Shown in pieces: positions 16,757-37,595 of a DNA stretch of 51,260 bases (position 1 is its first letter; each line of letters begins with the position of its first letter). The notes under the pieces were generated by a model, which did no database searches, was not told where the DNA came from, and was given only the letters and a program-made list of their open reading frames with translations. A program made the position numbers and the translations under genes. The DNA comes from Chitinivibrionales bacterium (lineage in GTDB: Bacteria; Fibrobacterota; Chitinivibrionia; Chitinivibrionales; WJKA01): positions 1-51,260 of the forward strand of contig JBEPYC010000005.1 of assembly GCA_041641555.1 (NCBI GenBank), written 5' to 3'.

Positions 16757-17683
16757 TTATCCCTGATCGCGAATAAATGAGACGAACGTTTCCGCCTGAT
16801 CGTATTCGAGCAGAAACTCCGCACTCAACTCTTCAAGCATCGAGGCATCCAGGGCAACATCGTTTTCTTCGAATAATGTCCACATTCTCTCATCGAGTTC
16901 TTTAACCTCGGCACGCCCTGAATTGCCAATGCCATTATAGTGACAAAGATAATTAGCTGCGCCAATCAGCCCAATAAAGGCAGGCTCCTGCGGTGCATCC
17001 CAGGGGCAATGGTGGTAATGGATTGTGTCGACAATAATCGAAGGAAGGCGCCATTTCTCCGCCAGCCACCCGCCTATCCGCGAATGCCCGGTTCCCAACA
17101 CTTCTCTCTCGGCAGCATCGAGGTCCATTTTTTTCTCCGCCACCCGGGACATGACCTGCGTGAAATCCTCGTGCGCATACTGATTGACGATAATCTTCCC
17201 AAGATCATGCAGAAGGCCGGCAACAAATGCCTCTCCTACCAACCGACGGTAGTACTTTCTGGCGAGCATTCGTGCTCCCACACCGCAAGCGATTGAATGC
17301 TCCCAGAACTGCGAAACATCAAACCGCCGATCCGCCTCGGAATTCCTGAAAACATCGAGAACCGACAGAGAGAGCCCCATTTCCTTGACACTATTGAACC
17401 CGAGGATTACAATCGCCATATTTACCGTAGAAATCTCGCGCGAGAATCCGTAGTAGGCCGAATTGGCCAACTTCAGTATGCGGGCAGTAAGTGCCTGGTC
17501 GGTCGAAATCAGACGTGCAAGCGATGCCGCTGAGGTCTTCGGGTTATCAACCATCTCGATCATCTTGGAGACAACCGTTGGAAGTGTCGGGAGCGTCAGA
17601 ACGCTCTCGGTTATCCGCTTGATCCGGTTTGCCGCGGTTTCATTCTTATGAGAAGGTATCATTGGTTTTGGTGGATTTGACAT
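16757..17683 (-). CDS. HDOD domain-containing signalling protein
   Basis: LPTLPTVVSKMIEMVDNPKTSAASLARLISTDQALTARILKLANSAYYG and GLLHDLGKI. The start is ambiguous: the ORF is open to 17737, and the ATG at 17683 avoids overlap with the upstream ORF. Confidence 0.85.
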   Translation of the reverse strand: MSNPPKPMIPSHKNETAANRIKRITESVLTLPTLPTVVSKMIEMVDNPKTSAASLARLISTDQALTARILKLANSAYYGFSREISTVNMAIVILGFNSVKEMGLSLSVLDVFRNSEADRRFDVSQFWEHSIACGVGARMLARKYYRRLVGEAFVAGLLHDLGKIIVNQYAHEDFTQVMSRVAEKKMDLDAAEREVLGTGHSRIGGWLAEKWRLPSIIVDTIHYHHCPWDAPQEPAFIGLIGAANYLCHYNGIGNSGRAEVKELDERMWTLFEENDVALDASMLEELSAEFLLEYDQAETFVSFIRDQG

Positions 17684-17705
17684 GCAGGGTATATCGATGC
17701 ACGCT

Positions 17706-18011
17706 TTACGCGTCGACATCGACAAACCGACCGCCATCGGGCCGGGGACCTCTCATGGATTTCTTTTTCTTGTTTCGGGAGCTTTTTTTTTCGTGTCGCG
17801 GATTCTGTTTTTCACGCCGGTCCCTGGGATCGATTGTCTTTTCCTGCGACTGTTCAGGCTCCACAGCAGTCTGTGCCCGGCGCTGAGCTTCCTCGCGGGC
17901 CTTCAGGATATTGCTTTCCTGATCGATCATCGGGGCGCGATGCCCATCCTGCTGGTGACGCTCAAGTTGCGTGAGGTTGCTCACCGAAGCATTGAAATCG
18001 ACAATCCTCAT
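17706..18011 (-). CDS. hypothetical small, highly charged, probably disordered protein downstream of fliA
   Basis: Strong GGAGGTGA Shine-Dalgarno 6 nt before the ATG, 33 nt after the fliA stop. 101 aa rich in E/K/R/Q (RREKQNPRHEKKSSRNKKKKS). No family recognised. Confidence 0.5.
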   Translation of the reverse strand: MRIVDFNASVSNLTQLERHQQDGHRAPMIDQESNILKAREEAQRRAQTAVEPEQSQEKTIDPRDRREKQNPRHEKKSSRNKKKKSMRGPRPDGGRFVDVDA

Positions 18012-18043
18012 AACCGATCACCTCCACCAGGAAGACACCGCAA

Positions 18044-18808
18044 TCAGGCATTGATACGCTGTAACAGGCGAGCGCGAAGCTTCAGTATTGCCTTGGAGTG
18101 AATCTGACTCACTCGCGATTCGGAGATCTCAAGCACAACCCCTATTTCTTTCAACGTCAACTCCTCATAATGATACAAGGCAACCACCAGTCGCGCTTTG
18201 TCCGGTAAGCTCGTGATAGCGTCTTTCAAGATCGTCTTCAGCTCCTCGAAACCGAGAGCTTTCAACGGATTCTCACTGCCTGGATCTTCAATTGTTTCGA
18301 TCAGCTTTATCTGCTTGGAATCTCCCCCCCTGTCCGGCATCGATTCTTCAAGTGACAGGATTGTAGTAGGAGTTATCTCCGCGAGAAGCTCTTCGTATTC
18401 ACGAGGAGTGATATCCAGTTCAGCACATACTTCGTCATCGTAGGGTGCCCTGCCAAGCTCATTTTCGAGCTTACCGTGTGCTCGCTGCACTTCACGATAC
18501 TTCTGTCGAATCGATCGAGGCACCCAGTCCATAGACCGGAGTTCATCCAGGATCGCTCCGCGAATTTTGTGCCCCGCATAGGTCTCGAATTTGAACCCGC
18601 GGCCAGGATCGAAGGTTTCCACCGCCCGGATAAGCCCGAGTACTCCCGCACTGGTAAGATCATCGCGATCAACGGTTTTGGGCAGGTTAACTGCTACCCG
18701 CGAAGCAATATACTTCACCAGATGGGCATATTCCACAAGCAGCTTGTCTTTAGCTACTTTCGATCCGGTTTCCTTGAATTCTTTCCACACGCTCTCGAGG
18801 TTGGACAT
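18044..18808 (-). CDS. fliA: flagellar sigma factor sigma-28 (FliA/SigD/WhiG)
   Basis: FDPGRGFKFETYAGHKIRGAILDELR (region 2) and LTLKEIGVVLEISESRVSQIHSKAILKLR (region 4). The ATG at 18808 (MSNLESVW) follows GAAGGGG. Confidence 0.93.
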   Translation of the reverse strand: MSNLESVWKEFKETGSKVAKDKLLVEYAHLVKYIASRVAVNLPKTVDRDDLTSAGVLGLIRAVETFDPGRGFKFETYAGHKIRGAILDELRSMDWVPRSIRQKYREVQRAHGKLENELGRAPYDDEVCAELDITPREYEELLAEITPTTILSLEESMPDRGGDSKQIKLIETIEDPGSENPLKALGFEELKTILKDAITSLPDKARLVVALYHYEELTLKEIGVVLEISESRVSQIHSKAILKLRARLLQRINA

Positions 18809-18940
18809 GCAAGCCCCTTCTATACATTCCAAAGCGGACTCTCAACAATACTGCTTATTTTGTCTCATACACTATTGTGCCGTTCACGCTGCCTGATATG
18901 CAATCATGTCGTGGCTTTTAAGCCCCGGATATTGAGCCGA

Positions 18941-19282
18941 TTACGATGATTCCTGCGTTGATGAAGTCGACTCGTCGGTTACCTGCACTTCAGCAGGCTC
19001 TATGCTCATACTCTTCTTCTGCTCACGAAGGCGCTGCGACAATCCTTCGTCGAGAATATCAATGGTTTTCAGCTCGATGTCCTCTATGATTCCCTTGAAC
19101 AGAATATCGGCAAGTATGAATGCCCCTATCCAGATGAGCATCGATAGTCCGAAGGCTTTTATGAAGGATATCAACACGATATCCGGATTGAACAGATCGT
19201 GGGGATCCAGACCCATAAAAAAAATCACGAAAAAGCAGAGCATCGCCACAATCCGCGCGCATCGTTTAATCCATAAAATCAT
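18941..19282 (-). CDS. hypothetical two-TM membrane protein between flhG and fliA
   Basis: MILWIKRCARIVAMLCFFVIFFMG and FGLSMLIWIGAFILADILF look like TM helices, followed by an acidic/Ser-rich tail. The ORF is open to 19312. No family recognised. Confidence 0.5.
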   Translation of the reverse strand: MILWIKRCARIVAMLCFFVIFFMGLDPHDLFNPDIVLISFIKAFGLSMLIWIGAFILADILFKGIIEDIELKTIDILDEGLSQRLREQKKSMSIEPAEVQVTDESTSSTQESS

Positions 19283-19324
19283 TGCGTCCTTCTCCTGAAC
19301 CCGTGACCGCAACCGTGCCTCATC

Positions 19325-20236
19325 CTATCCACCAATCTTCGCAAAGACTCTGGAAAAAAATCCCTGATTCGAAACAGCAGGAATCCCGCAGATTTTCCGC
19401 GCACACCCTGCAAGTCTGACCGAGAAAGTCGAATTGGGTTTTTCGACGGTAATAAGCTTCTGGCGCCGTACCATTCGTGGTATATCCCTGTCTGAGGGCA
19501 AAATACCTGCGCAATTCAGTTTTCTCTTGAGAAATCTCGAAGAAAGTGTGTTTAGCCGGTCGAAAGCTTCCATTCCTTCCGTATCGGAATTGGCCATGTT
19601 CACGAGGACCTCGATCGATTCGGCTCCTCGCTCATGCAAGACCTTCACCATGGCATAGGCATCGGCAAGCGATGTCGGCTCGGGTGTCATAACACAGAGG
19701 CTACGGTCCGCCAGCGAAGCGAATCCGCTCGCGGCTGTACCTATCCCGGCACTGGTGTCAATCACCATGAGATCATACTGTTGCTGCAGCGGTATCAGGC
19801 TCCGCTTGAGAATTTCCAGCTGCAAAGGATCTGCATTCGCCAGTTTCTCCATACCCGATGCGCCCGGAATGATCCTGACTCCCCCGGGTCCTTCACATAT
19901 AATCTCATCAATCGAGCATTCCTGCGATACCACATGCGACAAATTTTTCTGTGGGGCGAGCCCAAGCAGGATATGCACATTGGCCAGCCCGAGGTCACCA
20001 TCGAAAAGCAGTACCTTCTTCTTGAGCAGGGACAAGGCCACACTGAGCATCAGGGCAATATTTGTTTTTCCAACTCCACCCTTTCCGCTCGAAACGGATA
20101 TGGTGCGAAGTTTCCCGCGAACTGATTCCGCTTCCATTCGGGGTTTACCAGCCGAGTTTCCCCCCCCGGAGCCGGCACTTCTCATGATCTCCCGTAAACG
20201 CTGCGCCTGATCGATCACCTCTCGACCCCTTCCCAC
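19325..20236 (-). CDS. flhG: MinD/ParA-type ATPase FlhG (FleN/YlxH), regulator of flagellar number and placement
   Basis: Deviant Walker A SGKGGVGKT, then LLFDGDLGLANV and MVIDTSAGIG. It lies directly after flhF with a 22-nt overlap. Confidence 0.9.
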   Translation of the reverse strand: MGRGREVIDQAQRLREIMRSAGSGGGNSAGKPRMEAESVRGKLRTISVSSGKGGVGKTNIALMLSVALSLLKKKVLLFDGDLGLANVHILLGLAPQKNLSHVVSQECSIDEIICEGPGGVRIIPGASGMEKLANADPLQLEILKRSLIPLQQQYDLMVIDTSAGIGTAASGFASLADRSLCVMTPEPTSLADAYAMVKVLHERGAESIEVLVNMANSDTEGMEAFDRLNTLSSRFLKRKLNCAGILPSDRDIPRMVRRQKLITVEKPNSTFSVRLAGCARKICGIPAVSNQGFFSRVFAKIGG

Positions 20237-21444
20237 AGGCGCTGCACGAACCGTGCCGCATGCGCCACTTCGATATCATCCGGCACGCTTTGGCCCGTGG
20301 CGAAATACGATACCGGAATGCCGGTTTCTGCAACAGTGTTCAGGATATTTCCCAGCCGTACCGTTTCGTCGAGTTTCGTAAAAAGCAACCTGTTTACTCC
20401 TGCGGTACGGTATCGCTTGATGATATCGTTGAGGTCCGAGTCTTTGGTGGTAGCACTCAGGACCAGGTGTGTCTGATCCGGCTGCATCTGGTGAAGCATT
20501 TCCCGCAGTTCATCCATGTGCTCCCGGTTTTTCTGACTCCGGCCGGCAGTGTCGATCAAAACGATATCATCGTTATGACAGGCAGAACGAGCCATGCGCA
20601 CTTCATTGGGCGAAAACACTACCTGTAAACCAACTCCTACGATATCGGCAAACGTCCGAATTTGTTCGATCGCAGCAATACGGTATGTATCGGATGTTAT
20701 AATCGAGACCGACATTCCCTTATTGGCAACGAAATGAGCGGCAAGCTTTGCCAGTGTCGTTGTTTTCCCGGCACCGGTCGGCCCGACAAATGCAACGGTC
20801 AAAGGCCCATCGGAGCGGGGGCGCAACGGGCCGGTTACCGGAAACGATGCAGCAAGGGCTGCGGAGAAGGTCTCGTCGATTGTAGTTCCAGCACTTTCAT
20901 AGCTTTCCCGAACTTCGTTGATAAGGTTTTTTGCGACCTGCGGCTTAACTTCGGACTCGGTCAGTTTAGTGTAAAGGAGCTCCCACCCCCCCACCAGCTC
21001 TCCACTGACCTCCTGTTTTCCTCCTCCCGAGACCACCGAACGTACCATGGCCTTGAGTTCATTGAGTTCACGTCGGAGTTCGAAAATCGATGTATCACGG
21101 CTTCTGTCTGCCGTGGCCACTTCCTCCGTGCGTTCCGGTTGCGTCTGCCCAATCGGACGAACCGGTACCGGAGGAGCTTCGGGCACCGGCGGTCTTTTCG
21201 ATTGGTGATGCGGATGGTTGTACACTCCAGCTTCGGCCATTTTCAGCGGATCGAACGTCTGCGTCTTCTTCGGTCCTCCGTCGTCGATTCCCGCAGTCAC
21301 TTCGATATCGCTCTTACCACCCAGCGATAAAAATCCGTTGGATACCCGTTCGGTTTTCAGGATCACGGCATCTTCGCCAAGTTCCTGTCGAATCAGCATC
21401 AGCGCTTCTCGCATGCTGCCTGCCCTGAATTTTTTTATTCTCAC
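20215..21444 (-). CDS. flhF: SRP-type GTPase FlhF
   Basis: MRIKKFRAGSMREALMLIRQELGEDAVIL, FVGPTGAGKTTTLAKLAA (G1), IDTAGRS (G3) and TKLDET (G4). Confidence 0.92.
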   Translation of the reverse strand: MRIKKFRAGSMREALMLIRQELGEDAVILKTERVSNGFLSLGGKSDIEVTAGIDDGGPKKTQTFDPLKMAEAGVYNHPHHQSKRPPVPEAPPVPVRPIGQTQPERTEEVATADRSRDTSIFELRRELNELKAMVRSVVSGGGKQEVSGELVGGWELLYTKLTESEVKPQVAKNLINEVRESYESAGTTIDETFSAALAASFPVTGPLRPRSDGPLTVAFVGPTGAGKTTTLAKLAAHFVANKGMSVSIITSDTYRIAAIEQIRTFADIVGVGLQVVFSPNEVRMARSACHNDDIVLIDTAGRSQKNREHMDELREMLHQMQPDQTHLVLSATTKDSDLNDIIKRYRTAGVNRLLFTKLDETVRLGNILNTVAETGIPVSYFATGQSVPDDIEVAHAARFVQRLWEGVER

Positions 21445-21482
21445 AAATCCCCAATCCTTCGATATATTCTTAATTTGGTTAA

Positions 21483-23588
21483 TTACTGTAACTCACCATT
21501 ATTCCGCTCGAGGCTGATCATGCCGGCCGATCGTATCTCGATACCGGGCACTATCTCATTATACGAAAGTACCACGACATCGGGGAAACTGGTTTCGGCA
21601 AGTCTCTTGAGCTGGGAGCGAATCGTGGGCGAACATATCACAATTGGAATTTCGCCGCGTTTCTTGGCCTCTTCCGTCTCCCCTCCAAGGGCTTCCATAA
21701 TCTTCCCGACATCCCCAGGTGCCACCGACAATCGAAAACCGGTATCTGTCTCCTGCAATGAAGACTCCAGCCGCGCCTCGAGATCCGGGTCCATAGCGAT
21801 AACCGGTATCACATTCGACTCATCCTTGAACATCTCGCATATTTGCGGAGCAAGTGCGTTACGGACATATTCGGTGAGTATTTCCGGGTTTTTGTTCCGT
21901 GGAGCTACATTGGCGAGCGTTTCCAGAATTATCAGCAGATCACGTATCGGTACCTGTTCCCGGAGAAGGTTCTGGAGCACGCGATGAATCTCTCCGATTG
22001 TCAGAACGTTCGGTACAAGTTCGCTCACCACAGTGGAATGCGTTTCCTTGATGTTATCAATGAGGCTCTGAACGTCCTGGCGGGTCAGGAGGTCATCGGC
22101 ATGGCGTTTAATCACCTCTGTCAGGTGTGTTGCCAGTACAGCCGGCAGTTCAACGACTGTGTAGCCAGCAAGTTCAGCCGACTCACGTTGACTCTCGGTT
22201 ATCCAGAGTGCCGGGAGCCCAAATGCCGGTTCAACGGTTTCTACACCTCTGATCTTCTTTGTCGCCGTTCCAGGATCCATTGCCAAATACGAGCCACTCA
22301 TCAGCTCCCCGCTCCCGACTTCGAGGGTACGAATCCTGACCCGGTATTCGTTTGGCTTGAGCTGAATGTTATCTCGGATCCGTATCGGAGGAATAATCAC
22401 TCCCAACTGCGAGGCGAGCTGCCGACGGATCATGGTGATACGATCGAGTAGATCTCCCCCCTGGGATTTATCGACCAGCGGAATCATTCCATACCCTATC
22501 TCCAGTTCCATCGGATCGACATGCAGATAGTCTTCCACCCGCTCTTCGGCAGGCCTGGAAGGTGCTTCGGCCTCTTGGGCTTCAACGACCTCACGCTGCC
22601 TGGCCTGGGCGCCGGAAATGTATGCTCCACCCAGAGAGGCCACTCCCAGCGTAATAAATGGAAGCTTGGGGAACCCCGGGACCGCAGCGAAGAACAACAT
22701 GATGCCGCCCGTGACCGCAAGGACCTTCGGATTCGCAAACAGCTGCGTCCCGAGTTCTTCGCCGAGGTTGGTTTCCGATGCAGCGCGGCTGACAAGAAGG
22801 CCCGCACCAGTGGAAATCATCAGCGCGGGGATCTGACTCACCAGTCCGTCACCGATCGATAACATGGTAAAGGTTTGCACCGCTTCTCGCCAGTCGTAGC
22901 CAAGCATAACCATACCGACGATGAACCCGCCGATAACATTGACGATTGTTATGATGATTCCGGCAACCGCATCTCCCCGAACGAACTTCGACGCACCATC
23001 CATTGCTCCGTAGAATTCCGCTTCCTTCCCGATTTTTTCACGCCGCTGCCGCGCAACGTCTTCGGTGATAAGTCCGGCGTTCAAGTCTGCATCGATCGCC
23101 ATCTGCTTTCCCGGCATGGCATCCAAAGTGAACCGCGCCGCGACTTCGGCAATGCGGCCGGCACCCTTGGTGATCACGACAAACTGGATAATGACAATGA
23201 TAATGAAAATGATTACGCCGACGACGACATTACCCTTGGTCACAAAGTTTCCAAATACTTCGATGACCTTTCCGGCTTCTGCCGATCCCAGGATGAGTCG
23301 TGTGGTGGCAACATTGAGCGCAAGTCGAAACAATGTCACCGTAAGGAGAAGTGAAGGGAATACCGAAAACTCCAGAGGCTCCCGGTTGTACATAGTCGAA
23401 AGAAGGATTATCAGCGAAACACACAGGTTCAATGACAGGAGAAGATCGATTATCTGCGTCGGGATAGGCAGGATCATCACCACGATGATCGATACCACTC
23501 CCATTACGATCAGGAGATCTCGCCGCTTGAGGATTTTCTGCACAAGCGGCTTGTTCAGGCCAATGCTGAGTGTATCTGCTACGCTCAT
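21483..23588 (-). CDS. flhA: flagellar type III export gate protein FlhA
   Basis: FPSLLLTVTLFRLALNVATTRLIL, GNVVVGVIIFIIIVIIQFVVITKGAGRIAEVAARFTLDAMPGKQMAIDADL and a C-terminal cytoplasmic domain; 701 aa. Confidence 0.97.
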   Translation of the reverse strand: MSVADTLSIGLNKPLVQKILKRRDLLIVMGVVSIIVVMILPIPTQIIDLLLSLNLCVSLIILLSTMYNREPLEFSVFPSLLLTVTLFRLALNVATTRLILGSAEAGKVIEVFGNFVTKGNVVVGVIIFIIIVIIQFVVITKGAGRIAEVAARFTLDAMPGKQMAIDADLNAGLITEDVARQRREKIGKEAEFYGAMDGASKFVRGDAVAGIIITIVNVIGGFIVGMVMLGYDWREAVQTFTMLSIGDGLVSQIPALMISTGAGLLVSRAASETNLGEELGTQLFANPKVLAVTGGIMLFFAAVPGFPKLPFITLGVASLGGAYISGAQARQREVVEAQEAEAPSRPAEERVEDYLHVDPMELEIGYGMIPLVDKSQGGDLLDRITMIRRQLASQLGVIIPPIRIRDNIQLKPNEYRVRIRTLEVGSGELMSGSYLAMDPGTATKKIRGVETVEPAFGLPALWITESQRESAELAGYTVVELPAVLATHLTEVIKRHADDLLTRQDVQSLIDNIKETHSTVVSELVPNVLTIGEIHRVLQNLLREQVPIRDLLIILETLANVAPRNKNPEILTEYVRNALAPQICEMFKDESNVIPVIAMDPDLEARLESSLQETDTGFRLSVAPGDVGKIMEALGGETEEAKKRGEIPIVICSPTIRSQLKRLAETSFPDVVVLSYNEIVPGIEIRSAGMISLERNNGELQ

Positions 23589-23589
23589 G

Positions 23590-25296
23590 TTATTCCTTCA
23601 CCGAAAACTTCAGCTGTGATTCTGCCCGACGTCCTTTGCGGTCCTCCACAATGCAGGTTACATCGAGCGTGCTGTCACAGCTAATCACGACACTTTTCCC
23701 CGGGTGCGTTGAATCGTTGTACGCCCAGGCGTAAGAAACCACATCACCCGCTACTTCATCCGGATCTGAGCCAAACGCGGTAACTACCACCTTTTCATTG
23801 CGGCTTGCCTCGTACACGGGAACATCAGAAAGTGAGGTCACGACAATCTCCCTGGAACTCCCGCTCAGCTCAACGCTGTCGATCACCGGCATGTGGTTTT
23901 TCAGGGCCATCACCACATTATTTACACGTTCAAGACTGTCCTCATCCCAGGCGTGGATGGTTATAGTATCCCGAAACTCAACCGTATCCTCGAAAAGCCC
24001 CTCGGGAGGGATATAGACAAAATCCGGCTCCTGACTTTCGAGCCTTCCCCGTGTTGTCGAGGTCACCCGGAACGTCCAGGAGGCCGAGTCCCAGCTATCC
24101 GGGTCATGAACCCAGGCGCGTAGAGAAACTGTGTCCTGAGCATCAAAGGGGACAACAGTGTAAGCATCGGCTGCATACCGGGTGCTATCGGTTCCGATAC
24201 TGTCGATGCTTGGAGACCGGTTTACCACTCCAGCCATCAGTGCAATACTCGTACTCACCGATTCCCCGAGCGGGTCGCGTGCAACGATATCGATGGTATC
24301 GAGAAAGTAGAGTGTGTCTTTTACGACTGAATTGCATCCGCTCCCTGCGCACTCAAATTCTGCTTCATTCCCCGATGCCGACAATGCTCCCTCGCCACGG
24401 TTGCTCCACTCATAGACAAGTGTTCCGGTATTGTCCGGATCTTTAGCGTATGCTTGCACAGTAAGAGAGCTGATCAGTGTATCCCGGTGTGCAATCATCG
24501 TCGGCGCGGTCGTATATCGAATACTGTCGATTACAATGCTCTCAAACCGCGGTGCTTTGTTTGCCCGGCGGTTAGAGATGATAATCTTCTGACGGATACT
24601 CGCCCCCTTGGGGTCATACACATGCACAAATACCGTGTCGACAAACCCTCCCGTTGGAGTAACATAGCTGCTGCTGATACCGGTAGAAGGTGACGGTTCG
24701 ACCCGGTGTCCCGACCATCCGACATTCACGCGTGCACCATCATCCTGATCACTCACCCTGACGGTCAATGTACACGTCTCCGCCGAATCGACTTCGTAGG
24801 AAATGGGCTTGCCGGTAAATGGGTACTCATTGCGGTTTACCGTTATCGAATGGAGTACTGGAGCAATATTCTCGACGTACACCCTGACGGTATTACTCCG
24901 AAGCAGCCCACTTCGTGCCTCGACATGGATGGAATCATACGCTCTGCCCGTCGAATCTGATACAGCCGGCTTTTCGGTCCAGTACACTTCCGTTTCAACT
25001 TCTGAGACCGTACCTCGTGCCGAAAGCAGCGGATCCCGCACGAACTTTGCCTGACCAAGTGACCAGGAGATTTCATCCATGGTGATGCTGTCTTCCGGAT
25101 TCAATATCTCCAGAATGACAGTCGTGGGAGTACCGCGAAAAACCGCTTCGGTCGTTCCCGTTCTACCCAGGCTTAGGCGTATCGGGTACGGAAACGTATC
25201 CGGCTCTACCGGTGTTTGCGCACAAAACGGGTAGACGCCCAGCCCCATCACAGCGATCGCACAGAGAAGGATGTATCGGGTCTTTGAATCTCTCAT
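23590..25296 (-). CDS. exported protein of unknown function with five tandem cadherin-like/Ig-like repeats, embedded between flhB and flhA
   Basis: The ATG overlaps the flhB TGA as ATGA, and the TAA lies 1 nt before the flhA ATG. Signal-peptide-like MRDSKTRYILLCAIAVMGLGVYPFCAQ. Repeat linkers are NIAPVLHSI, NKAPRFESI, NRSPSIDSI and NHMPVIDSV. DPD...Y-x-W signatures occur in the repeats. Confidence 0.75.
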   Translation of the reverse strand: MRDSKTRYILLCAIAVMGLGVYPFCAQTPVEPDTFPYPIRLSLGRTGTTEAVFRGTPTTVILEILNPEDSITMDEISWSLGQAKFVRDPLLSARGTVSEVETEVYWTEKPAVSDSTGRAYDSIHVEARSGLLRSNTVRVYVENIAPVLHSITVNRNEYPFTGKPISYEVDSAETCTLTVRVSDQDDGARVNVGWSGHRVEPSPSTGISSSYVTPTGGFVDTVFVHVYDPKGASIRQKIIISNRRANKAPRFESIVIDSIRYTTAPTMIAHRDTLISSLTVQAYAKDPDNTGTLVYEWSNRGEGALSASGNEAEFECAGSGCNSVVKDTLYFLDTIDIVARDPLGESVSTSIALMAGVVNRSPSIDSIGTDSTRYAADAYTVVPFDAQDTVSLRAWVHDPDSWDSASWTFRVTSTTRGRLESQEPDFVYIPPEGLFEDTVEFRDTITIHAWDEDSLERVNNVVMALKNHMPVIDSVELSGSSREIVVTSLSDVPVYEASRNEKVVVTAFGSDPDEVAGDVVSYAWAYNDSTHPGKSVVISCDSTLDVTCIVEDRKGRRAESQLKFSVKE

Positions 25297-26360
25297 GCCG
25301 CATTCCTGTTCTTCAGCCGATACACATAGGCAAGAATCTCCGCCACGGCCGAGAAAAACTCCATCGGGATATCATCCCCGGGTTCAACCTGTTCGTACAT
25401 GGCACGAGCCAACGGTTTATCTTCGACGATAGGGATACCGTTTTCCTTGGCCATGGTTTTTATTCGCTCGGCAATCAGCCTTTTTCCTTTTGCAAGTACC
25501 TTCGGGGTATCCATCTCTGTTGCTTCGTAGCGAATCGCTATAGCAATGTAGGTCGGATTGGTGACAACGACCGTAGCTTGCGGCACTTCCTGCATCATCC
25601 TTCGCCTCAGCATTTCCCGTTGTACCGTGCGAATCCGCCCTTTCATCTGCGGATCACCTTCCATCTGTTTGCGCTCTTCTTTCACTTCTTCTTTTGTCAT
25701 TTTCAAGTTCTTTTCGTAGTCATATCTCTGATATGCATAATCAAGGATCGCCAGTACGATCAGCAGCAACGCTATTCGGAGAATCAAGCGCGAAGAAAGC
25801 TCGGTCACGTACGTCCAGATCGCGCCTACCGGCATGTCTGTAAGCTGCAGCATTCGTTCGAAATCACCGCTTATGACCTGATAGGCTATAAAAGCGATAA
25901 TAACGATCTTCATGATACTCTTTGCCGTCTCGACCAGTGACTTTACCGAAAAGAGTCTTCCAAAACCTGAGATGGGGTTGATTTTGCTCAGCTTGGGCAT
26001 AAGCGGTTTGAGCGTGAAAAGTAACCCCACCTGAAAGTAATTGGCCACCAGCCCAATCAGGAGCAGTGTGGCCATGATCGGCCCGACAACCATCCCGGTG
26101 GTCTTCATGGCATGGCCGAACAGATCGACATATGCCCCCAGGCTCCGAGGCGGATCTGATATCAGTCCGAAAAAAAAGGTAATCACGTCGGACATTTTTT
26201 CAAACATCCAGCTGCCCCAGATTTTCAACACCGTATAGGAGCCCAGAAGAACAAGTACCGTGTTCACTTCCGTGCTCTTTGCGACGGTGCCTTTGCTGCG
26301 CGAGTCCGATCGTTTCTTATCGGTTGGCGCTTCGGTCCTTTCCTGAAAATCATCGGGCAT
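25293..26360 (-). CDS. flhB: flagellar type III export switch protein FlhB
   Basis: EAPTDKKRSDSRSKG, MTKEEVKEERKQMEGDPQMKGRIR, VVVTNPTYIAIAIRY (NPTH-type autocleavage region, here NPTY) and IPIVEDKPLARAMY. Confidence 0.95.
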   Translation of the reverse strand: MPDDFQERTEAPTDKKRSDSRSKGTVAKSTEVNTVLVLLGSYTVLKIWGSWMFEKMSDVITFFFGLISDPPRSLGAYVDLFGHAMKTTGMVVGPIMATLLLIGLVANYFQVGLLFTLKPLMPKLSKINPISGFGRLFSVKSLVETAKSIMKIVIIAFIAYQVISGDFERMLQLTDMPVGAIWTYVTELSSRLILRIALLLIVLAILDYAYQRYDYEKNLKMTKEEVKEERKQMEGDPQMKGRIRTVQREMLRRRMMQEVPQATVVVTNPTYIAIAIRYEATEMDTPKVLAKGKRLIAERIKTMAKENGIPIVEDKPLARAMYEQVEPGDDIPMEFFSAVAEILAYVYRLKNRNAA

Positions 26361-26425
26361 GTACCTGATGCCTCCTCAGCGGTACCACAGAATCTTTATG
26401 TTTCAGAAACGCGATCACCGGATTT

Positions 26426-27211
26426 CTAAGCCATCATGTAGAGAAGCTTCCAGATATCGGCAACCAGTGCTTCCATTATCTTCCGAAACGTCGAGAACAA
26501 CAATGGGAACACAACAGCAGTGGTTCCCAATCCAAGAAGTATCTGCATGGGCAGACCGACAAAGAACACATTGATTTGCGGAACAGTCCGCACAATGAGC
26601 CCCATTGCCAGATAAGAGATAAACAGAGTGACATACACCGGAGCGGCCAGCCGCAGGGCTGAGACGAATATACCGGCCGATATGCTGGTTAAATGGTATC
26701 CAACCCGTCCCCCCGGATACAGCACTCCGCTCAGGGGGACCAGTTCAAAACTTTTCTGTATTGCCAGAAGAAAAAAGTAGTGCCCGTTGATCAGAAGAAA
26801 GAAGATCGTGAAAACCAGCACTAACAGCTGTCCCATACTCGTAACCTGAGCGTTTGTGAATGGGTCAACCAGCCGCACAAAGGCAAATCCCATTCGCTGG
26901 TCGATCAGGTGTCCGGCGAACTGCACCGCCACGAACAGAAACGAGGAGACAAAACCCATGAGTATACCTACAAACAGCTCCTTTACAATCATTACTACAA
27001 ACCCACCCCAGGTAAAAGGCAGACTCTGGGTTTCCGGAAGAGGTATGACCGGGAAAAGCACCACAGTCAATATGAGCGAAAACGCCACCTTCAGCTGAGC
27101 GGGAATATTCTGGGATCCGAATACCGGCAGAAGCGCCATGACAGCCGTTATTCGTACGAATATCAGCAGAAAGAACTGAATATGTTCCAATGTGACGATT
27201 GGTGAATTCAT
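26426..27211 (-). CDS. fliR: flagellar export gate protein FliR
   Basis: The ATG at 27211 lies immediately after the fliQ stop. FFLLIFVRITAVMALLPVFG and multiple TM helices. The ORF is open to 27283, but that would overlap fliQ. Confidence 0.9.
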   Translation of the reverse strand: MNSPIVTLEHIQFFLLIFVRITAVMALLPVFGSQNIPAQLKVAFSLILTVVLFPVIPLPETQSLPFTWGGFVVMIVKELFVGILMGFVSSFLFVAVQFAGHLIDQRMGFAFVRLVDPFTNAQVTSMGQLLVLVFTIFFLLINGHYFFLLAIQKSFELVPLSGVLYPGGRVGYHLTSISAGIFVSALRLAAPVYVTLFISYLAMGLIVRTVPQINVFFVGLPMQILLGLGTTAVVFPLLFSTFRKIMEALVADIWKLLYMMA

Positions 27212-27213
27212 TG

Positions 27214-27483
27214 CTATCCTGCAATTGTGGGGATCATATCGAACAGCTGTCTCGTGAAATCCATTACACGAATGACCATCCACGGCAATAGTGCCATAAG
27301 CATTCCCACCATGACCAGAATTTTTGGTATGAATGTCAAGGTCATTTCATGAATCTGCGTGACGGCCTGGAACACTCCCACCGTCAGACCAACCACCAGT
27401 CCAGCCAGAAGCATCGGGGCCGAGATCACCAGAACCATCAAGATCGCATTTCTACCAACATCGATCGCTACTGCCGGTTCCAT
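27214..27483 (-). CDS. fliQ: flagellar export gate protein FliQ
   Basis: 89 aa; MLLAGLVVGLTVGVFQAVTQIHEMTLTFIPKI is the typical FliQ core. Confidence 0.95.
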   Translation of the reverse strand: MEPAVAIDVGRNAILMVLVISAPMLLAGLVVGLTVGVFQAVTQIHEMTLTFIPKILVMVGMLMALLPWMVIRVMDFTRQLFDMIPTIAG

Positions 27484-27507
27484 CGTTTTTTCCTTTGCGA
27501 TTCCTCG

Positions 27508-28302
27508 TTAGAAGAACGATAAGACAAGCTGCCTGACCAATAAATGCCATCCATCCACAAGCACGAACAGTACAATTTTGAACGGCATGGAAATCATAAT
27601 TGGCGGAAGCATCATCATACCCATCGATAGCAGCACACTGGCTACAATCATATCGATTACCAGGAATGGAATAAAGAGAACGAACCCGATAATAAAGGCT
27701 GTCTTGAGTTCACTGGTAATGAAGGCCGGCACGATTACCGCCATGGAGAGGTCATCGATCGTCCGTGGCGCAGGTGATTTTGACATCCGGACGAAAAGCG
27801 CCACATCTTTTTCACTCACTTGCTTGAGCATGAACTGACGCACTGGTTTTGTAGCACGGTCAAGCGCTTCATTCCACGATATTTCTTCTGCCATATAGGG
27901 CTGCAGCGCAGTGTCATTGACCTCCGTTATCACCGGCATCATGACAAAAATAGTCAAGAAAAGAGCCAGTCCGACCAGCACCTGATCGGGCGGCATAGTC
28001 TGTGTTCCAATAGCTCTCCGAAGAAAGCTGAAAACGATGACCATTCGAATAAAGGAAGTGGCCATCATAAGAATCGAGGGAGCAAGGGCAAGCACAGTGA
28101 TCAGAAAGAGCATCTGCAGTGCCACAGAGACATCGGCTGGGTTTTCTGTATCCGCAACGGACAACGTCAGCTTCGGCAGAACCTGCGCCCCGATCGGGAC
28201 AGCGAACAAAACCAGTCCCGTTGCCATCGACGCGATTTTGTTGAAACACAGAATTCCGCTCAAGTTACAGCGGGTCCGTGCCGATAACGATAATGAGGAC
28301 AT
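27508..28302 (-). CDS. fliP: flagellar export gate protein FliP
   Basis: LTVLALAPSILMMATSFIRMVIVFSFLRRAIGTQTMPPDQVLVGLALFLTIFVMMP and FVLFIPFLVIDMIVASVLLSMGMMMLPP. Confidence 0.95.
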   Translation of the reverse strand: MSSLSLSARTRCNLSGILCFNKIASMATGLVLFAVPIGAQVLPKLTLSVADTENPADVSVALQMLFLITVLALAPSILMMATSFIRMVIVFSFLRRAIGTQTMPPDQVLVGLALFLTIFVMMPVITEVNDTALQPYMAEEISWNEALDRATKPVRQFMLKQVSEKDVALFVRMSKSPAPRTIDDLSMAVIVPAFITSELKTAFIIGFVLFIPFLVIDMIVASVLLSMGMMMLPPIMISMPFKIVLFVLVDGWHLLVRQLVLSFF

Positions 28303-28326
28303 GCATCTTCTCGTATTGGTGAAAGA

Positions 28327-28869
28327 CTATTTTTTCAGACGGTTCAGAAAAACGTTCATCGCATCCTTGAATTTTGTCACGGATACGACTCCCTTGGTTG
28401 ACGCAACCAACTCAACGGCTTTGTCCCCCTCGATTCGTTCCAATACAGTTATGTTCGTTGCTGTTTGGCCCAAAACGTACACAGCATCGCCGACACGAAC
28501 CAGAGTAACGGATCGGTTCTGACCCAACGGAAGCTGTTCCAGCAGATCCATGGAGCCGCCACCTATCTTTGAACTCCCGGCCAGCCCTCCCCTGCGAAGC
28601 ATCCATGCAATCACGACGATCAGCACAATGATAACGGCAAGATAGCCGGTAATCCGCAAAATGAGAAGTAGTAGGCTTTCCTCTTCTTGTTCCTGGCTTT
28701 CCTGCGTTTGTGTCTCGGGGGTGTTCTGTTGGCCGCCACCGTTTTCCGATGAACGGAGTTCCTTCTGCAGCTTACCCATATCAAACGAATCGCTTCTCTC
28801 TTGCCCCAAAGCCGATCCGGCAAATACACTCAGAAACAGGAGTATCACTACGGAACGCCAACGCATCAT
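28327..28869 (-). CDS. fliO: flagellar biosynthesis protein FliO (FliZ of Bacillus/Borrelia nomenclature)
   Basis: Located between fliY and fliP. N-terminal signal-like segment, TM LLLLILRITGYLAVIIVLIVVIAWML, then LLEQLPLGQNRSVTLVRVGDAVYVLGQT. Confidence 0.8.
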   Translation of the reverse strand: MMRWRSVVILLFLSVFAGSALGQERSDSFDMGKLQKELRSSENGGGQQNTPETQTQESQEQEEESLLLLILRITGYLAVIIVLIVVIAWMLRRGGLAGSSKIGGGSMDLLEQLPLGQNRSVTLVRVGDAVYVLGQTATNITVLERIEGDKAVELVASTKGVVSVTKFKDAMNVFLNRLKK

Positions 28870-29963
28870 TGCAGACTCCTGATCCTGTCTTCGGCGGAAA
28901 CCAGTGAAACGATTCTTATACCAAAGTTTTCATCTACCACAACTACTTCACCACGCGCGACCACTTTCCCATTTACTACCAGGTCTACCGGTTCGCCGGC
29001 CATGCGATCGAGTTCAACCACTGCCCCGGGCGCCAGATCCAGAATACGCTTTATAGAAAGATTGGCCGTGCCCAGCTCGATACTAACATCGAGATCGACA
29101 TCCAGCAGCATGTCCACGTTCTCTTTTGGCCCAGGAAGCCCATCGGAGACGGATAGTGAAGATTCGCTGAAACTGTCTGAGGAAGCCGGAACATTCGACA
29201 CGACACCCGCCAGATCATTCATTTCATCTTCGCTCAGCCCTATACCCGAGCCGCTGTCCTCACTCATCAGGTCTTCATCTGAGTCTTGTCCTGCCCCGGG
29301 AGCTGCCGAACAAAGTGCCTTGGCCACCTCTGTCGAGCAAAGCAACGCCATGTAAGAATCCTCTATACCTTCCACTGACATGCGAAGAATTCCCATTTGG
29401 GAGGATTCCATGTCGATACCCGGTTGTGCCAGACTGAATTCATCGACTGTGATGTTCCCGACAGACGCAGATTCCGAAAGGCGCTCGTTTATTCCTGCAG
29501 TAAAGGCTCCCAGAATCTGATTCACCAGCTCCGATATCGCGTCCTTATGGTCGTCGGTGTAGGCGGCAGTGCCATCACCAAGCATCATGAGATCGGAGAG
29601 AACCGCAACATCCTTTTTTGTAAAAACCGCAATAAGCGGTCCCTCGATTCCTCCGGTCATTGGAGCATTCACCGCAAGCAATTCCCCATCGACTTTCGAT
29701 GCGACCTGTGCCCCGTCGGCCTTGCTGCTTGTTTCGACCGAGAAACTGATAGTTCGATTCAGGACTGTGGAGAGAACGCTTTTGGCCTTATCACCAAACA
29801 ACTCGAATCCCTGCGTGAGCGCACCGTAGTTTATCTCTCCTGAACCCTCCGCACCACCCTGGCCCTCACCCTGGTTATCACCGGCACCGGAGCTGTCGGA
29901 AGTCGGACCGGACTGCTGGAGCAGATCGTCGACCTGATCTTGAGAAAGAAAATCATCACTCAT
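28866..29963 (-). CDS. fliY: flagellar motor switch protein FliY (long FliN-type, CheC-like middle region plus SpoA C-terminal domain)
   Basis: MSDDFLSQDQVDDLL. D-x3-E-x2-N core in DAISELVN. C-terminal SpoA domain VDLDVSIELGTANLSIKRILDLAPGAVVELDRMAGEPVDLVVNGKVVARGEVVVVDENFGIRI. 365 aa, versus about 100-140 aa for a plain FliN. Confidence 0.9.
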   Translation of the reverse strand: MSDDFLSQDQVDDLLQQSGPTSDSSGAGDNQGEGQGGAEGSGEINYGALTQGFELFGDKAKSVLSTVLNRTISFSVETSSKADGAQVASKVDGELLAVNAPMTGGIEGPLIAVFTKKDVAVLSDLMMLGDGTAAYTDDHKDAISELVNQILGAFTAGINERLSESASVGNITVDEFSLAQPGIDMESSQMGILRMSVEGIEDSYMALLCSTEVAKALCSAAPGAGQDSDEDLMSEDSGSGIGLSEDEMNDLAGVVSNVPASSDSFSESSLSVSDGLPGPKENVDMLLDVDLDVSIELGTANLSIKRILDLAPGAVVELDRMAGEPVDLVVNGKVVARGEVVVVDENFGIRIVSLVSAEDRIRSLQ

Positions 29964-30987
29964 CGCTACCCGGTACCTCCTTCTCGGTTATACGGGTAAT
30001 CTTGACAGCCTTTTTACGGCCGATTACACCCGACTTTCCGGCGAGTTTGGTCTTGTTTCCTACACGGACAATCAAATCACTGTTTGCGGGTTTATCAAGA
30101 CAGAGGATATCCCCGCAGTGTAACTGCAGGTAATCGCGAATAGAAAGTTTTGTCTGTCCCACAAGCACTCTGAGCGGAAGGTCAAGCGATCCGATCTCGT
30201 GTTCAACCATGCTTCGCGTCTCGGGAGTGCTCGTACTTTGTGAAGACATCCAGGACTCGCCCGAAAGCTTGTTAATAACACTTTCCAGCACCATATACGG
30301 GAAGCACAAACTCATCAATCCCGATGCATTCTGCATACGTACTTCCAGGGAGATGAGTATGACCGTCTCTCCCGGAGGCGCGATTTGGACAAACTGTGGA
30401 TTGGTTTCGTATGTTTCGATCCGTGGACTGAAAACCCCGATATGCTCCCATACTTCTCGAAGGTCATTGAGGCTCCGCTCCACGATACGGCGAATAACGT
30501 TTTCTTCGATGAGCGTCAGTTCCCGGTTCTGTTCCGATGGTCTGCCTTGCCCGCCGAAAAGCCGGTCGATAATGAAAAATACCAGCGATGGATTGATCTC
30601 GATAATGGCAGTACCCTCGAGCGGTTCCATTTTGAATACGTAAATACAACTCGGATTCGAAATTGACATAATAAATTCAGAATACGTAAGTTGATCAACG
30701 CTCACCAGTTCAATTTCAACAAATGTCCTGAGGAAGTTAGTCAGCGAGGTCGAGAATTGCCGTGCATATCCCTCGTGCAGATTCTGCAGGGTCCGCATCT
30801 GGTCCTTGGACACGCGATCGGGACGACGAAAGTCATACAGGGAAAGCGCCTTTTCGCCTTCCTGCGAAGTTCCTTCGCTCGCCGATGGAGCAGCATCGGT
30901 GGTTAAGCCACCAAAATCACTATCGCCGCCCGCGGAAACCGCGCTTAATAGTGCGTCAACTTCTTCCTGGGATAGTATATCACTCAC
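29956..30987 (-). CDS. fliM: flagellar motor switch protein FliM
   Basis: MSDILSQEEVDALL (CheY-P binding-type N-terminus), LYDFRRPDRVSKDQMRTLQNLHE and a C-terminal SpoA-like domain. Confidence 0.95.
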   Translation of the reverse strand: MSDILSQEEVDALLSAVSAGGDSDFGGLTTDAAPSASEGTSQEGEKALSLYDFRRPDRVSKDQMRTLQNLHEGYARQFSTSLTNFLRTFVEIELVSVDQLTYSEFIMSISNPSCIYVFKMEPLEGTAIIEINPSLVFFIIDRLFGGQGRPSEQNRELTLIEENVIRRIVERSLNDLREVWEHIGVFSPRIETYETNPQFVQIAPPGETVILISLEVRMQNASGLMSLCFPYMVLESVINKLSGESWMSSQSTSTPETRSMVEHEIGSLDLPLRVLVGQTKLSIRDYLQLHCGDILCLDKPANSDLIVRVGNKTKLAGKSGVIGRKKAVKITRITEKEVPGSDE

Positions 30988-31062
30988 GCTGGTGCGCTCC
31001 GTACAATAAAACGTTCGGCCTGATTCACGGTGGCCTCACTGCCCCGTGACTTCATGCCGTAT

Positions 31063-31620
31063 TCACTGAATAATGAATTCATCGAGAAGAACGTCCTTAA
31101 CCTGGCCAACTTTCTTCGGGAGCATCGTATTGAGACGTCGCAGATACTCCTTACGGATTTTTTCTTTGGTGTTCGGCTCATTCAGCTCCATGAGAGTCAT
31201 CTGTGACAACTGATCGATCAATACGTTTTTGAACTTTGGTCGAAGCAGTTCGAGGTGCTCCATAAGCTCTTTGTTCTTCGGGTCGAATTCGAGAACCACG
31301 CCGATTTTCAGAAACCGCTGACCATCTGTCTCGGCAATGTTGACAATTGCTACAATGGGTTCCTCACTGGTCACCGTGCCCAGGGAAATGGTTGGTCTGG
31401 CTCCGGCAGTGGAAACCGTGTCGGCATGCGCTTCGGACGAAGGGCTTTCGGGTTTAGGCATAGTAAATTTCACCAGAACAAAAGCCAGAGCGACATTCAG
31501 AACGATAATCCCTGCCAGAATCGCAATGAACTGAACTCGACTCCCCTTCTGAGGCGATTCCGTCTGCTCGCCGTTTGCTTTGTTCTCTTCCTTCTTTTTG
31601 TTTTCTTCTGCCATTCTCAT
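31063..31620 (-). CDS. fliL: flagellar basal-body-associated protein FliL
   Basis: Single TM FIAILAGIIVLNVALAFVLV, then FLKIGVVLEFDPKNKELMEHLELLRPKFKNVLIDQLS. Located between motB and fliM. Confidence 0.85.
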   Translation of the reverse strand: MRMAEENKKKEENKANGEQTESPQKGSRVQFIAILAGIIVLNVALAFVLVKFTMPKPESPSSEAHADTVSTAGARPTISLGTVTSEEPIVAIVNIAETDGQRFLKIGVVLEFDPKNKELMEHLELLRPKFKNVLIDQLSQMTLMELNEPNTKEKIRKEYLRRLNTMLPKKVGQVKDVLLDEFIIQ

Positions 31621-31646
31621 CCTCCTCGGACTGCTATCCCAAGCCC

Positions 31647-32375
31647 TTATCCTTCAGATTTTTTCTGGAGGTATTCAACGTAGATTTCAATCCGCCGGTT
31701 TTTCTGGCGGTTTGACGGGGAATCATTCGCTACCAACGGACGGAATTCCCCATAGCCGACCGCACTTAACCGCGAAGGGTCAATTCCGGCGCGATTTGCC
31801 AGGAATTTCACCACGTTCAAAGCTCGGGAGGACGACAGCTCCCAATTTGAGGGAAACGCCGCTGTGTTAATAGGAGTGTTGTCCGTATGTCCCTCAACAC
31901 GAATCTCGGCCTCCGGCATATCGTTTATCACGTTACTGATCTTGTAGAGCACATCGATGAACTCCGGACGGATGGAAGCTTTTCCGACCGGAAATCCGAC
32001 CGGGTCAGCCACATTTATTGCAATTCCGGTATCGGTCACCTTCACCTTGATTCCGTCTTCCAGGTTTTCCTGCTTGACGACCTTCTGGATACGACGTTTG
32101 GCGTCGACGGCCATTCGCTTATTCTGCTCATTTCCTCCCAGACGCGGTATCAGAATATCCTTATGTATCATCACCGTGGGAAACGATTCCAGAACTCCGC
32201 TGAAGGCGTTCTGAAAGGAGGACGCCGCTACCATGAATTTGGCAGGACTGATGGTCGACATCGCAAGAAGCATCACAAAGAAACAAAGCAGAAGGGTGCA
32301 CATGTCTCCCCACGTCGTCATGTATTCAGGAGCGCCCCCTTTATTTTCCTTTTTCTTTTGTTTCTTGACAGCCAT
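31647..32375 (-). CDS. motB: flagellar stator protein MotB (OmpA-like C-terminal peptidoglycan-binding domain)
   Basis: YMTTWGDMCTLLLCFFVMLLAM (conserved Asp in the TM region), EGHTDNTPI, NWELSSSRALNV and NRQKNRRIEI. Confidence 0.92.
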   Translation of the reverse strand: MAVKKQKKKENKGGAPEYMTTWGDMCTLLLCFFVMLLAMSTISPAKFMVAASSFQNAFSGVLESFPTVMIHKDILIPRLGGNEQNKRMAVDAKRRIQKVVKQENLEDGIKVKVTDTGIAINVADPVGFPVGKASIRPEFIDVLYKISNVINDMPEAEIRVEGHTDNTPINTAAFPSNWELSSSRALNVVKFLANRAGIDPSRLSAVGYGEFRPLVANDSPSNRQKNRRIEIYVEYLQKKSEG

Positions 32376-32391
32376 CGTTTTCTCGCCAGGT

Positions 32392-33165
32392 TTATTTCGC
32401 CCGTTCTTTCATTGCCTGCGCCCGCATGCCGGGCTCGATAAATGCTGTGAGTTTCTGTTCGACGATTCGCGGATTGTCACCCGATTGCAGCGACATTATT
32501 CCCTCGAGCATCAGTTCTTTTACCAGTGTCTCCATTGCAGAATAGCCTTTGAGCTTTTCGGCGAGCGGTATGAAAAGTGCATTGGCCAGAATAGCACCAT
32601 ACAGAGTTGTGATAAGAGCCACAGCCATATTGGGACCAATAGATTCGATATCGCTCATATTGCCAAGCATCAACACCAATCCTACAAGTGTTCCGATCAT
32701 TCCAAATGCAGGCGCGATAGTTCCCCCGAAATCAAACAATTTGGCGCCATCTTCGTGCCGCTGCTCGATAAAGGTGATTTCGGTGGTGAGAATGTCTTTG
32801 ATGAGATCCGGCTCCGTGCCATCGACCGCAAGCTGAATCCCCTTCTTCAGAAAGTCGTCCTGGATCTCAAGTGCCCGCGCTTCCAGGGCAAGTATTCCCT
32901 CCCGTCGTGCCTGCTCGGCAAAATCAACAAGTTGCTTGATCGTATCCACTGGTGTGAGCGACTTTACAAAGAATGCATTCCGGAGCACTCCGGCAGCATT
33001 GAACAGACGCCCCAGGGGAAACGCGGTAAACATCGCTCCAATCGTTCCCCCTACGGTTATTAAAACCGAATTAACATCGATGAAGGCGGCAATCTGGGAT
33101 ATCCCCATGCCAAACACGATCATCCCGAAGGCTACAAAAAGGCCGGTAAGGGTGGCTATATCCAT
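32392..33165 (-). CDS. motA: flagellar stator protein MotA
   Basis: MDIATLTGLFVAFGMIVFG, GTIAPAFGMIGTLVGLVLML and ITTLYGAILANALFIPLAEKL. Confidence 0.93.
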   Translation of the reverse strand: MDIATLTGLFVAFGMIVFGMGISQIAAFIDVNSVLITVGGTIGAMFTAFPLGRLFNAAGVLRNAFFVKSLTPVDTIKQLVDFAEQARREGILALEARALEIQDDFLKKGIQLAVDGTEPDLIKDILTTEITFIEQRHEDGAKLFDFGGTIAPAFGMIGTLVGLVLMLGNMSDIESIGPNMAVALITTLYGAILANALFIPLAEKLKGYSAMETLVKELMLEGIMSLQSGDNPRIVEQKLTAFIEPGMRAQAMKERAK

Positions 33166-33223
33166 AGTTCCTAATCTCTCAGGGGCTGCAACATGTTACT
33201 CCCGACAGAACCCGCATATCGGT

Positions 33224-33602: not shown

Positions 33603-33643
33603 CACGTTTTCTCCTTTGATTTTCAAGGAGTTTAGAGGGTTTT

Positions 33644-37575: not shown

Positions 37576-37595
37576 TCTGGTATCACCTCCCTCCA

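Follow-up and report, generated by a model that had tools for sequence, protein, structure and literature searches.

A conserved family of Ig-repeat proteins encoded between flhB and flhA and its candidate role as a flagellar envelope accessory

Introduction

Why would a gene for an apparently exported protein built of immunoglobulin (Ig)-like repeats lie between flhB and flhA, two genes of the flagellar export gate? The question is raised by a stretch of DNA of 51,260 nucleotides (nt) from a Chitinivibrionales bacterium (GenBank contig JBEPYC010000005.1, positions 1 to 51,260; hereafter the window), in which a 568-aa open reading frame (ORF), here called gene X, occupies this position. A preliminary description of the locus, made from the sequence alone, took the product of X for an exported string of five cadherin/Ig-like units and suggested a flagellar accessory. 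Here we show that X stands for a genuine gene family, conserved but so far unannotated, whose position inside a flagellar export operon is conserved as well, and we weigh the roles that its product may play.

Flagellar motors differ between lineages mainly by added periplasmic structures, and most of the examples come from Proteobacteria, Campylobacterota and spirochaetes. FlgP, a basal disk lipoprotein, and FlgT, a protein of the H-ring, belong to such structures. Lineage-specific periplasmic motor accessories have been described as additions to a conserved core (PMC13023049, PMC7990780). Flagella were predicted by genomics to be ancestral in Fibrobacteres outside Fibrobacteraceae, and the isolates Chitinivibrio and Chitinispirillum have single polar flagella and attach to chitin particles before swimming (PMC4704652, PMC4814513).

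Results

Gene X is wedged between flhB and flhA

The ORF and both of its junctions were confirmed as first described, with no intergenic space on either side (Table 1), and the neighbours matched the FlhB and FlhA models TIGR00328 and TIGR01398. The TGA of flhB (25295..25293) and the ATG of X (25296..25294) overlap as ATGA (25293..25296), and one base separates the TAA of X (23592..23590) from the ATG of flhA (23588..23586). As read from the sequence, flhB contains an AGGA motif (25307..25304) 7 nt ahead of the X start, and the last codons of X contain an AAGGA ribosome-binding site (23598..23594) 5 nt ahead of the flhA start. The GC content of X (53.3%) is like that of flhA (53.4%); hence, X shows no sign of recent foreign origin and appears to be a native gene. 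In a scan of positions 17500-33500, a region that includes flhB-X-flhA, promoter and terminator consensus matches did not exceed the shuffle expectation, and no matches were returned by Rfam and tRNA scans of the window.

X belongs to an unnamed protein family

A word-index homolog search retrieved three relatives of X, and five when a 47-sequence profile was used, a low count that was an artefact of the candidate filter. In the exhaustive profile search, 555 proteins were found at E<=1e-3, and about 74 representatives (50% identity clusters) scored at E<1e-30. The latter were mostly full-length proteins of 450-900 aa that include D1, the N-terminal domain of X. The lower-scoring relatives were giant multi-repeat proteins of 1000-3000 aa that have just the repeat unit in common with X and carry Big_9, cadherin-like, VCBS and He_PIG domains. 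The window X is 24-47% identical to the word-index relatives, and these homologs, together with the ~74 representatives, demonstrate that the ORF did not arise by chance.

Every family member with a source name was called 'hypothetical protein'. In the literature searched, neither the X family, nor a gene located between flhB and flhA, nor an Ig-like lipoprotein in flagellar clusters was found to have been described. The family is thus unnamed and unannotated, and D1 could serve as a profile and marker for it. The only labelled genome with a member is a metagenome-assembled genome of an 'uncultured Fibrobacteres bacterium' (L005), the FlhB of which matched that of the window with a phmmer E of 1.9e-120, much like the other members, whose values ranged from 1e-125 to 1e-133. 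No domains diagnostic of a lineage were found in the flanks of the window. To judge from this single label, the uncultured bacteria that carry X at the junction are probably related to Fibrobacteres.

The position at the export-gate junction is conserved

Genomic context was read for 23 distinct members with readable flanks, collected via exact look-ups and via a metagenome scan with a back-translated D1 motif. Of the 25 matches in that scan, 12 were classified by hidden Markov models (HMM) as true members and 13 as chance. X was found at the flhB/flhA junction in 19 of the 23 members (Table 1), so the synteny that the preliminary description had proposed to look for in related genomes does exist. 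The count includes cut contigs on which only flhB (L012, L013, L018, L038) or only flhA (L041) is visible. The junction is equally tight in most loci, with the 4-nt overlap of flhB and X recurring and a gap between X and flhA of typically 1-5 nt, and it has been kept across lineages whose FlhB proteins are 43-57% identical to that of the window.

A strict confinement of the family to flagellar loci did not hold. Three of the 23 members (L008, L010, L014; two lineages) are located elsewhere or have an incomplete context, and flhA is not the next gene in L005. The idea that the forms of ~800 aa make up a non-flagellar paralog subfamily was ruled out, since P0009 and P0010 (800 and 808 aa) are encoded at the junction. 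In one junction locus (L007, 2800..4810) the fliQ/fliR region is broken into several short ORFs, unlike the intact region of L006; the neighbouring flagellar genes give the same proteins and scores in the two, and the break probably stems from a frameshift introduced by sequencing or assembly of an older metagenome.

X consists of one unique domain and four Ig repeats

The five similar units of the preliminary description turned out to be one unique domain followed by four repeats. D2 to D5 are mutually homologous (hhalign probability 99.3-99.9%), whereas no relationship of D1 to any of them was detectable (2-5%); the possibility that D1 is a divergent sixth copy of the repeat was thereby ruled out. 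The linkers of the type N-x-x-P-x-[ILF]-x-S-[IV], at residues 143, 246, 359 and 467, and the Asp-rich motifs noted earlier are indeed present in the translation. In the family alignment D1 is the best-conserved part, with a mean identity to the query of 32% vs. 20-25% for the repeats. Its residues W106, S134 and N135 are invariant, as is N143, which opens the first linker. A comparison of the D1 profile with PDB sequences revealed no meaningful relative.

No Pfam or NCBIfam model covers X. The only Pfam match at E<=10 was a K319L-like PKD domain in D5 (E 0.004; 17.6 bits vs. the curated cut-off of 27), and PKD domains of collagenase in the PDB gave a weak sequence match at the same place. Among the 47 aligned members, scanned at E<=0.01, Big_9 (PF17963) was matched in 15 (best E 3.5e-16) and PKD-like domains in six. 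Matches to the cadherin repeat (PF00028) or to bacterial cadherin-like families were found neither in X nor in the 47 members at these same thresholds. HemolysinCabind/RTX domains likewise had no Pfam match in X or the 47 members, and the C-terminus of X is an ordinary repeat.

An AlphaFold2 (AF2) model calculated from the 47-sequence alignment reached a mean predicted local distance difference test score (pLDDT) of 90.6 and replaced an earlier model from four sequences (pLDDT 67). It presents a helix (residues 5-25), a short linker and five beta-sandwich domains. Foldseek placed cadherin ectodomains, contactins, the extender of an RTX adhesin (6xi1), GhpA and S-layer proteins at the top, i.e., generic tandem-Ig strings, which dominate the whole-chain search and make it uninformative on D1 specifically. 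The matches to cadherin ectodomains had E values of ~1e-13, template modelling scores (TM-scores) of 0.2-0.3 and identities of 10-14%; known flagellar proteins were absent from the top 50 PDB matches. Hence, the resemblance to cadherins is one of fold only, while in sequence the repeats resemble Big_9/PKD-like domains rather than Pfam cadherins, and X structurally appears to belong with the bacterial Ig extender domains of this type. In overall shape the model, with its five beta-sandwiches in a row and acidic linkers, resembles the five EC repeats of classical cadherin ectodomains, and conserved Asp residues occupy the linkers and loops of the family alignment. D3 contains a Cys pair, with C316 present in 74% and C321 in 47% of members, which is compatible with an exported, oxidising location.

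The N-terminus is predicted to tether X to a membrane

The conserved hydrophobic segment supports the proposed export. A hydrophobic helix that ends in Cys25, invariant in 47 of 47 members, describes the N-terminus better than does a plain Sec signal peptide with cleavage after CAQ. The median uncharged run before Cys25 is 15 residues and the median net charge of the n-region is +2 in the 47 members. In the family alignment, the cysteine is usually followed by T, S or A, with a Pro a few residues on. In X itself the lipobox is non-canonical, reading Y-P-F and then Cys, with Phe at -1. A canonical lipobox (PROSITE PS51257 type, with A/G/S at -1 and residues of the L/V/I type at -3/-2) was recognized in only seven of the 47 members, V, L, T or F being most common at -1. 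Altogether, export of X and its tethering to a membrane at the N-terminus are well supported by these sequence features, and lipidation at Cys25 is likely. Alternatively, the N-terminus may act as an uncleaved signal-anchor. In the AF2 model D1 lies within ~12 residues of the membrane.

Elsewhere in the window, a 298-aa ORF with no Pfam match shares with X an unusual hydrophobic-Phe-Cys-Thr junction in its N-terminus, which reads LLSCLFC and then TITAS. This similarity hints that the organism may use relaxed lipoboxes.

X co-diverges with its neighbours and exchanges its distal part

In 12 loci with flhB, X and flhA all complete, pairwise identity averaged 32.5% among the X proteins, 60.4% among FlhB and 74.4% among FlhA. 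The identities of X correlated with those of FlhA (Spearman 0.75) and FlhB (0.69), which indicates vertical inheritance of X at the junction, in the best-conserved stretch of the flagellar export operon, through deep divergence, with X evolving much faster than its neighbours.

The total length varies from 483 to 903 aa in the main family through a varying number of repeats. Two of the most divergent members, P0132 and P0152, retain the N-terminal Cys, D1 and D2 but lack the further Ig repeats, which an NHL/SGL-type beta-propeller replaces, as assigned by Pfam matches in P0132 and judged by eye in P0152. P0132 is encoded exactly between flhB and flhA (L037, 5001..6803; FlhB 49% identical to that of the window) and P0152 directly after flhB (L038, 3155..4807; 43%). 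To judge from these sequences, the tether, D1 (with D2) and the genomic position are the constant elements of the family, and the distal part is exchangeable by domain swapping on a conserved foot. The strong conservation of D1 and the retention of D1 and D2 despite the propeller swap speak for docking close to the membrane as the conserved function and not for a distal ligand-binding tip.

The surrounding flagellar block

Pfam scans assigned the genes around X to a fla/che-type block with the order MgtE_N (FlgY/FlbB-like)-fliK-flgD-flgE-(flbD)-motA-motB-fliL-fliM-fliN/Y-fliO-fliP-fliQ-fliR-flhB-X-flhA-flhF-flhG-123aa-fliA-101aa-HDOD. The first gene, directly upstream of fliK, is an ORF of 205 aa whose product has a hydrophobic stretch at the N-terminus and matches MgtE_N weakly (E 6e-4). 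Both the position and the domain agree with the 'E-ring' protein FlgY/FlbB/YlxF (PMC13023049), for which this ORF is a candidate only. FlgY/FlbB/MotE is a widely conserved periplasmic motor component that was long overlooked in fla/che-type clusters, as X would be; it differs in its ARM-like helical fold, its position next to fliK and its near-universal rather than lineage-specific occurrence.

Two small ORFs have no Pfam match. The 123-aa ORF after flhG has hydrophobic stretches resembling two membrane helices, and the 101-aa ORF after fliA is highly charged. Unannotated ORFs of these sizes were seen at equivalent positions in L001, L003, L006, L034, L036 and L037, and the two may represent additional flagellar genes specific to the lineage or encode proteins that partner with X. 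The motA and motB genes, present between flbD and fliL in the window and in L001, are absent there in L034 and L036, in whose genomes the stator genes must therefore lie elsewhere. Three core proteins are enlarged: FlgE (714 aa), FlgD (418 aa), which contains two FlgD_ig stretches and, in its C-terminal part, a sub-threshold match to MG2, and a FliN-type protein (365 aa) of the FliY type, the N-terminal domain of which is weakly CheX-like.

Table 1. Positions of X, its parts, its neighbours and other ORFs of the window, and the loci that carry X at the junction.
Feature	Positions	Residues	Strand	Basis
Gene X, 568-aa Ig-repeat protein, predicted to be exported and membrane-tethered	23590..25296 (with stop codon 23590..23592)		minus	ORF, translation, homologs, AF2 model
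Positively charged n-region, hydrophobic helix (5-25 in the model), invariant Cys25	25222..25296	1-25	minus	alignment, model
D1, family-specific beta-sandwich	24871..25215	28-142 (folded from ~39)	minus	conservation, profile comparison
D2, first Big_9/PKD-like Ig repeat, opens with linker NIAPVLHSI	24562..24870	143-245	minus	profile comparison, model
D3, Ig repeat with partly conserved Cys pair	24223..24561	246-358	minus	profile comparison
D4, Ig repeat with HDPD motif	23899..24222	359-466	minus	profile comparison
D5, Ig repeat with weak K319L-like PKD match	23593..23898	467-568	minus	Pfam, profile comparison
flhB	25293..26360		minus	TIGR00328, E 3.7e-128
flhA	21483..23588		minus	TIGR01398, E 3.1e-266
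fla/che-type flagellar gene block	16757..39998		minus	Pfam scans
205-aa ORF, FlgY/FlbB/YlxF candidate	39384..39998		minus	
flgD	36340..37596		minus	
flgE	33723..35867		minus	
motA/motB	31647..33165			
FliN-type gene	28866..29963		minus	
123-aa ORF after flhG	18941..19312		minus	
101-aa ORF after fliA	17706..18011		minus	
298-aa ORF with X-like N-terminal junction	8905..9801		plus	
Loci with X at the flhB/flhA junction: window; L001; L002/L025; L003/L004/L009; L006/L007; L011; L012; L013; L018; L026; L027; L028; L033; L034/L035; L036; L037; L038; L040; L041/L042				

Discussion

The conserved position, the overlapping codons, the co-divergence with FlhA and FlhB and the invariant cysteine, taken with the domain architecture and fold, raise the hypothesis that X is a lineage-specific, flagellum-dedicated, membrane-tethered accessory or strut of the periplasm. 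We put the probability of this reading at roughly 0.45. X would be translated from a polycistronic mRNA shared with FlhB and FlhA and exported by Sec, and its N-terminus would hold it on a membrane, the inner or the outer, via either a lipidated Cys25 or an uncleaved signal-anchor. D1, with D2, would sit at the membrane surface and dock a conserved partner of the basal body or envelope. The variable C-terminal part might then project ~20-35 nm, a length estimated from ~4-4.5 nm per Ig domain, as an element of a strut, fence or cage around the basal body. This part would be made of three to seven Asp-rich Big_9/PKD-like Ig domains, probably stiffened by Ca2+, or of an NHL beta-propeller in the sister lineages. 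The more precise identities put forward by the preliminary description, i.e., a collar, a disk or a stator scaffold, are conjectural.

Known motor accessories offer a partial precedent. FlgP of the basal disk, FlgT and FlgO of the H-ring, PflA/PflB, the spirochaete collar proteins FlbB and FlcA-C and MotX/MotY are, like X, exported, encoded with flagellar genes and restricted to certain lineages as additions to the core. Both they and X are membrane-tethered or lipoprotein-like and plausibly form scaffolds, although the association of X with the motor is putative. They are built of TPR, SHS2/LPP20 and OmpA-like modules, whereas X is a string of Ig-like domains. To our knowledge, and in the literature that we searched, the flhB/flhA junction is not the site of any of their genes.

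Several observations weigh against a flagellar accessory. Searches of Pfam, NCBIfam and the top 50 Foldseek PDB matches linked X by neither sequence nor fold to FlgP/LPP20, FlgT, FlgO, MotX, MotY, PflA/PflB, FlbB/FlgY or FliL, and the comparison of the D1 profile with the PDB added no similarity to a known motor accessory. X has the fold and repeat unit of the extenders of extracellular adhesins, and the unit is shared with the giant proteins of 1000-3000 aa. X evolves fast (mean identity 32%), and so widely varying a number of repeats is unusual for a ring-forming part of fixed geometry. The lipobox is non-canonical in 40 of the 47 members, although MliC of a related genome has the canonical TAHA before its Cys. 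Finally, the position is not universal. The X of L005 (3245..4366) follows flhB but precedes what is, by eye, likely a MoxR-type AAA ATPase instead of flhA; the contig is short, and the arrangement reflects either a rearranged operon or a mis-assembly. In L014 X is not followed by flhA, and the upstream side is cut off. Intact copies of ~800-900 aa in L008 (6001..8712) and L010 (6949..9339) have no flagellar neighbours; these two come from related organisms with common flanking genes (an SNF2 helicase and others), which suggests one relocation event.

Some of these observations would be expected if X were a lipid-anchored surface adhesin or 'landing gear', co-regulated with the early flagellar genes and contacting insoluble polysaccharide particles without being part of the motor. 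Large adhesins with Big_9, PKD-like or cadherin-like extenders (6xi1 among them) share with X the tandem beta-sandwiches of ~100 aa, the Asp-rich loops and linkers of the form N-x-x-P-x-I-D-S. The matches of the fold and repeats to the 6xi1 extender, GhpA and cadherin ectodomains, the occurrence of the unit in giant proteins with Big_9, cadherin-like, VCBS and He_PIG domains, the variable repeat number, the fast evolution and the swappable C-terminal module all agree with such a role. So do the GH38, CE2 and sulfatase genes in the flanks of the window and the behaviour of cultured Fibrobacteres relatives, which attach to chitin particles before they become motile (PMC4814513). X departs from the adhesin extenders in having just four to eight domains, an N-terminal tether, the unique D1 and a place in a flagellar export operon, and from the giant RTX adhesins of type I secretion systems (T1SS) in having an N-terminal signal instead of the RTX/T1SS C-terminus or a ligand-binding head. 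Its most conserved part is the membrane-proximal D1 and not the distal tip, where no distinct ligand-binding head is found. Moreover, an overlapping-codon wedge between two low-copy export-gate genes would be odd for an abundant protein and argues against a surface coat, and the position has been held over deep divergence in step with FlhA and FlhB. An adhesin is thus unlikely.

The coupling to export-gate genes also permits an assembly or positioning factor, tethered to the inner membrane by a helix that serves as a signal-anchor and acting transiently or in low copy rather than as a permanent scaffold. It might assist assembly of the export gate or MS-ring, local passage through peptidoglycan, periplasmic spacing or polar placement. 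A relaxed lipobox in 40 of the 47 members would fit a helix that stays uncleaved; the placement genes flhF and flhG lie directly downstream, and D1 is close to the membrane. Against this, an invariant Cys that closes the hydrophobic segment exactly is seen more typically with lipidation, a 20-35 nm rod, and likewise a propeller, would be a large structure for an assembly chaperone, and nothing similar is known in other flagellar systems, which makes such a factor rather improbable. The chance that X is a mere passenger, an envelope protein unrelated to flagella that was inserted once in an ancestor and kept since its removal would disturb operon expression, is also small: the intact copies in L008 and L010 show that expression outside the operon is possible, and the generic fold, the fast evolution and the absence of a detectable link to known flagellar proteins are in line with it, but the gene has held its position across lineages with strongly diverged FlhB, its overlapping start and stop codons are conserved, purifying selection acts on residues of the D1 region (C25, W106, S134, N135, N143), and both the position and D1/D2 were retained when the C-terminal payload was exchanged.

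The periplasmic accessory or strut, the reading that we prefer, can be taken further. X may be a permanent part of an unseen periplasmic or outer motor structure of Fibrobacteres-type bacteria, a ring or cage of membrane-tethered, Ca2+-stiffened Ig rods, with propellers mounted on the same D1-D2 foot in sister lineages and synthesis tied to the export gate; this bolder version is possible but doubtful.

In the literature searched, Fibrobacteres-type flagella are known only via genomics and via light and electron microscopy of two isolates. If such a structure exists, X would be the first rod protein of the Ig/cadherin-like kind in a flagellar motor, and it would exemplify modular 'payload swapping' on a docking domain that is itself conserved. 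Should X prove to be an adhesin or a passenger, a non-core gene fixed between flhB and flhA through translational coupling would remain an unusual case. X is a concrete candidate for a new motor embellishment and for the modular evolution of such additions.

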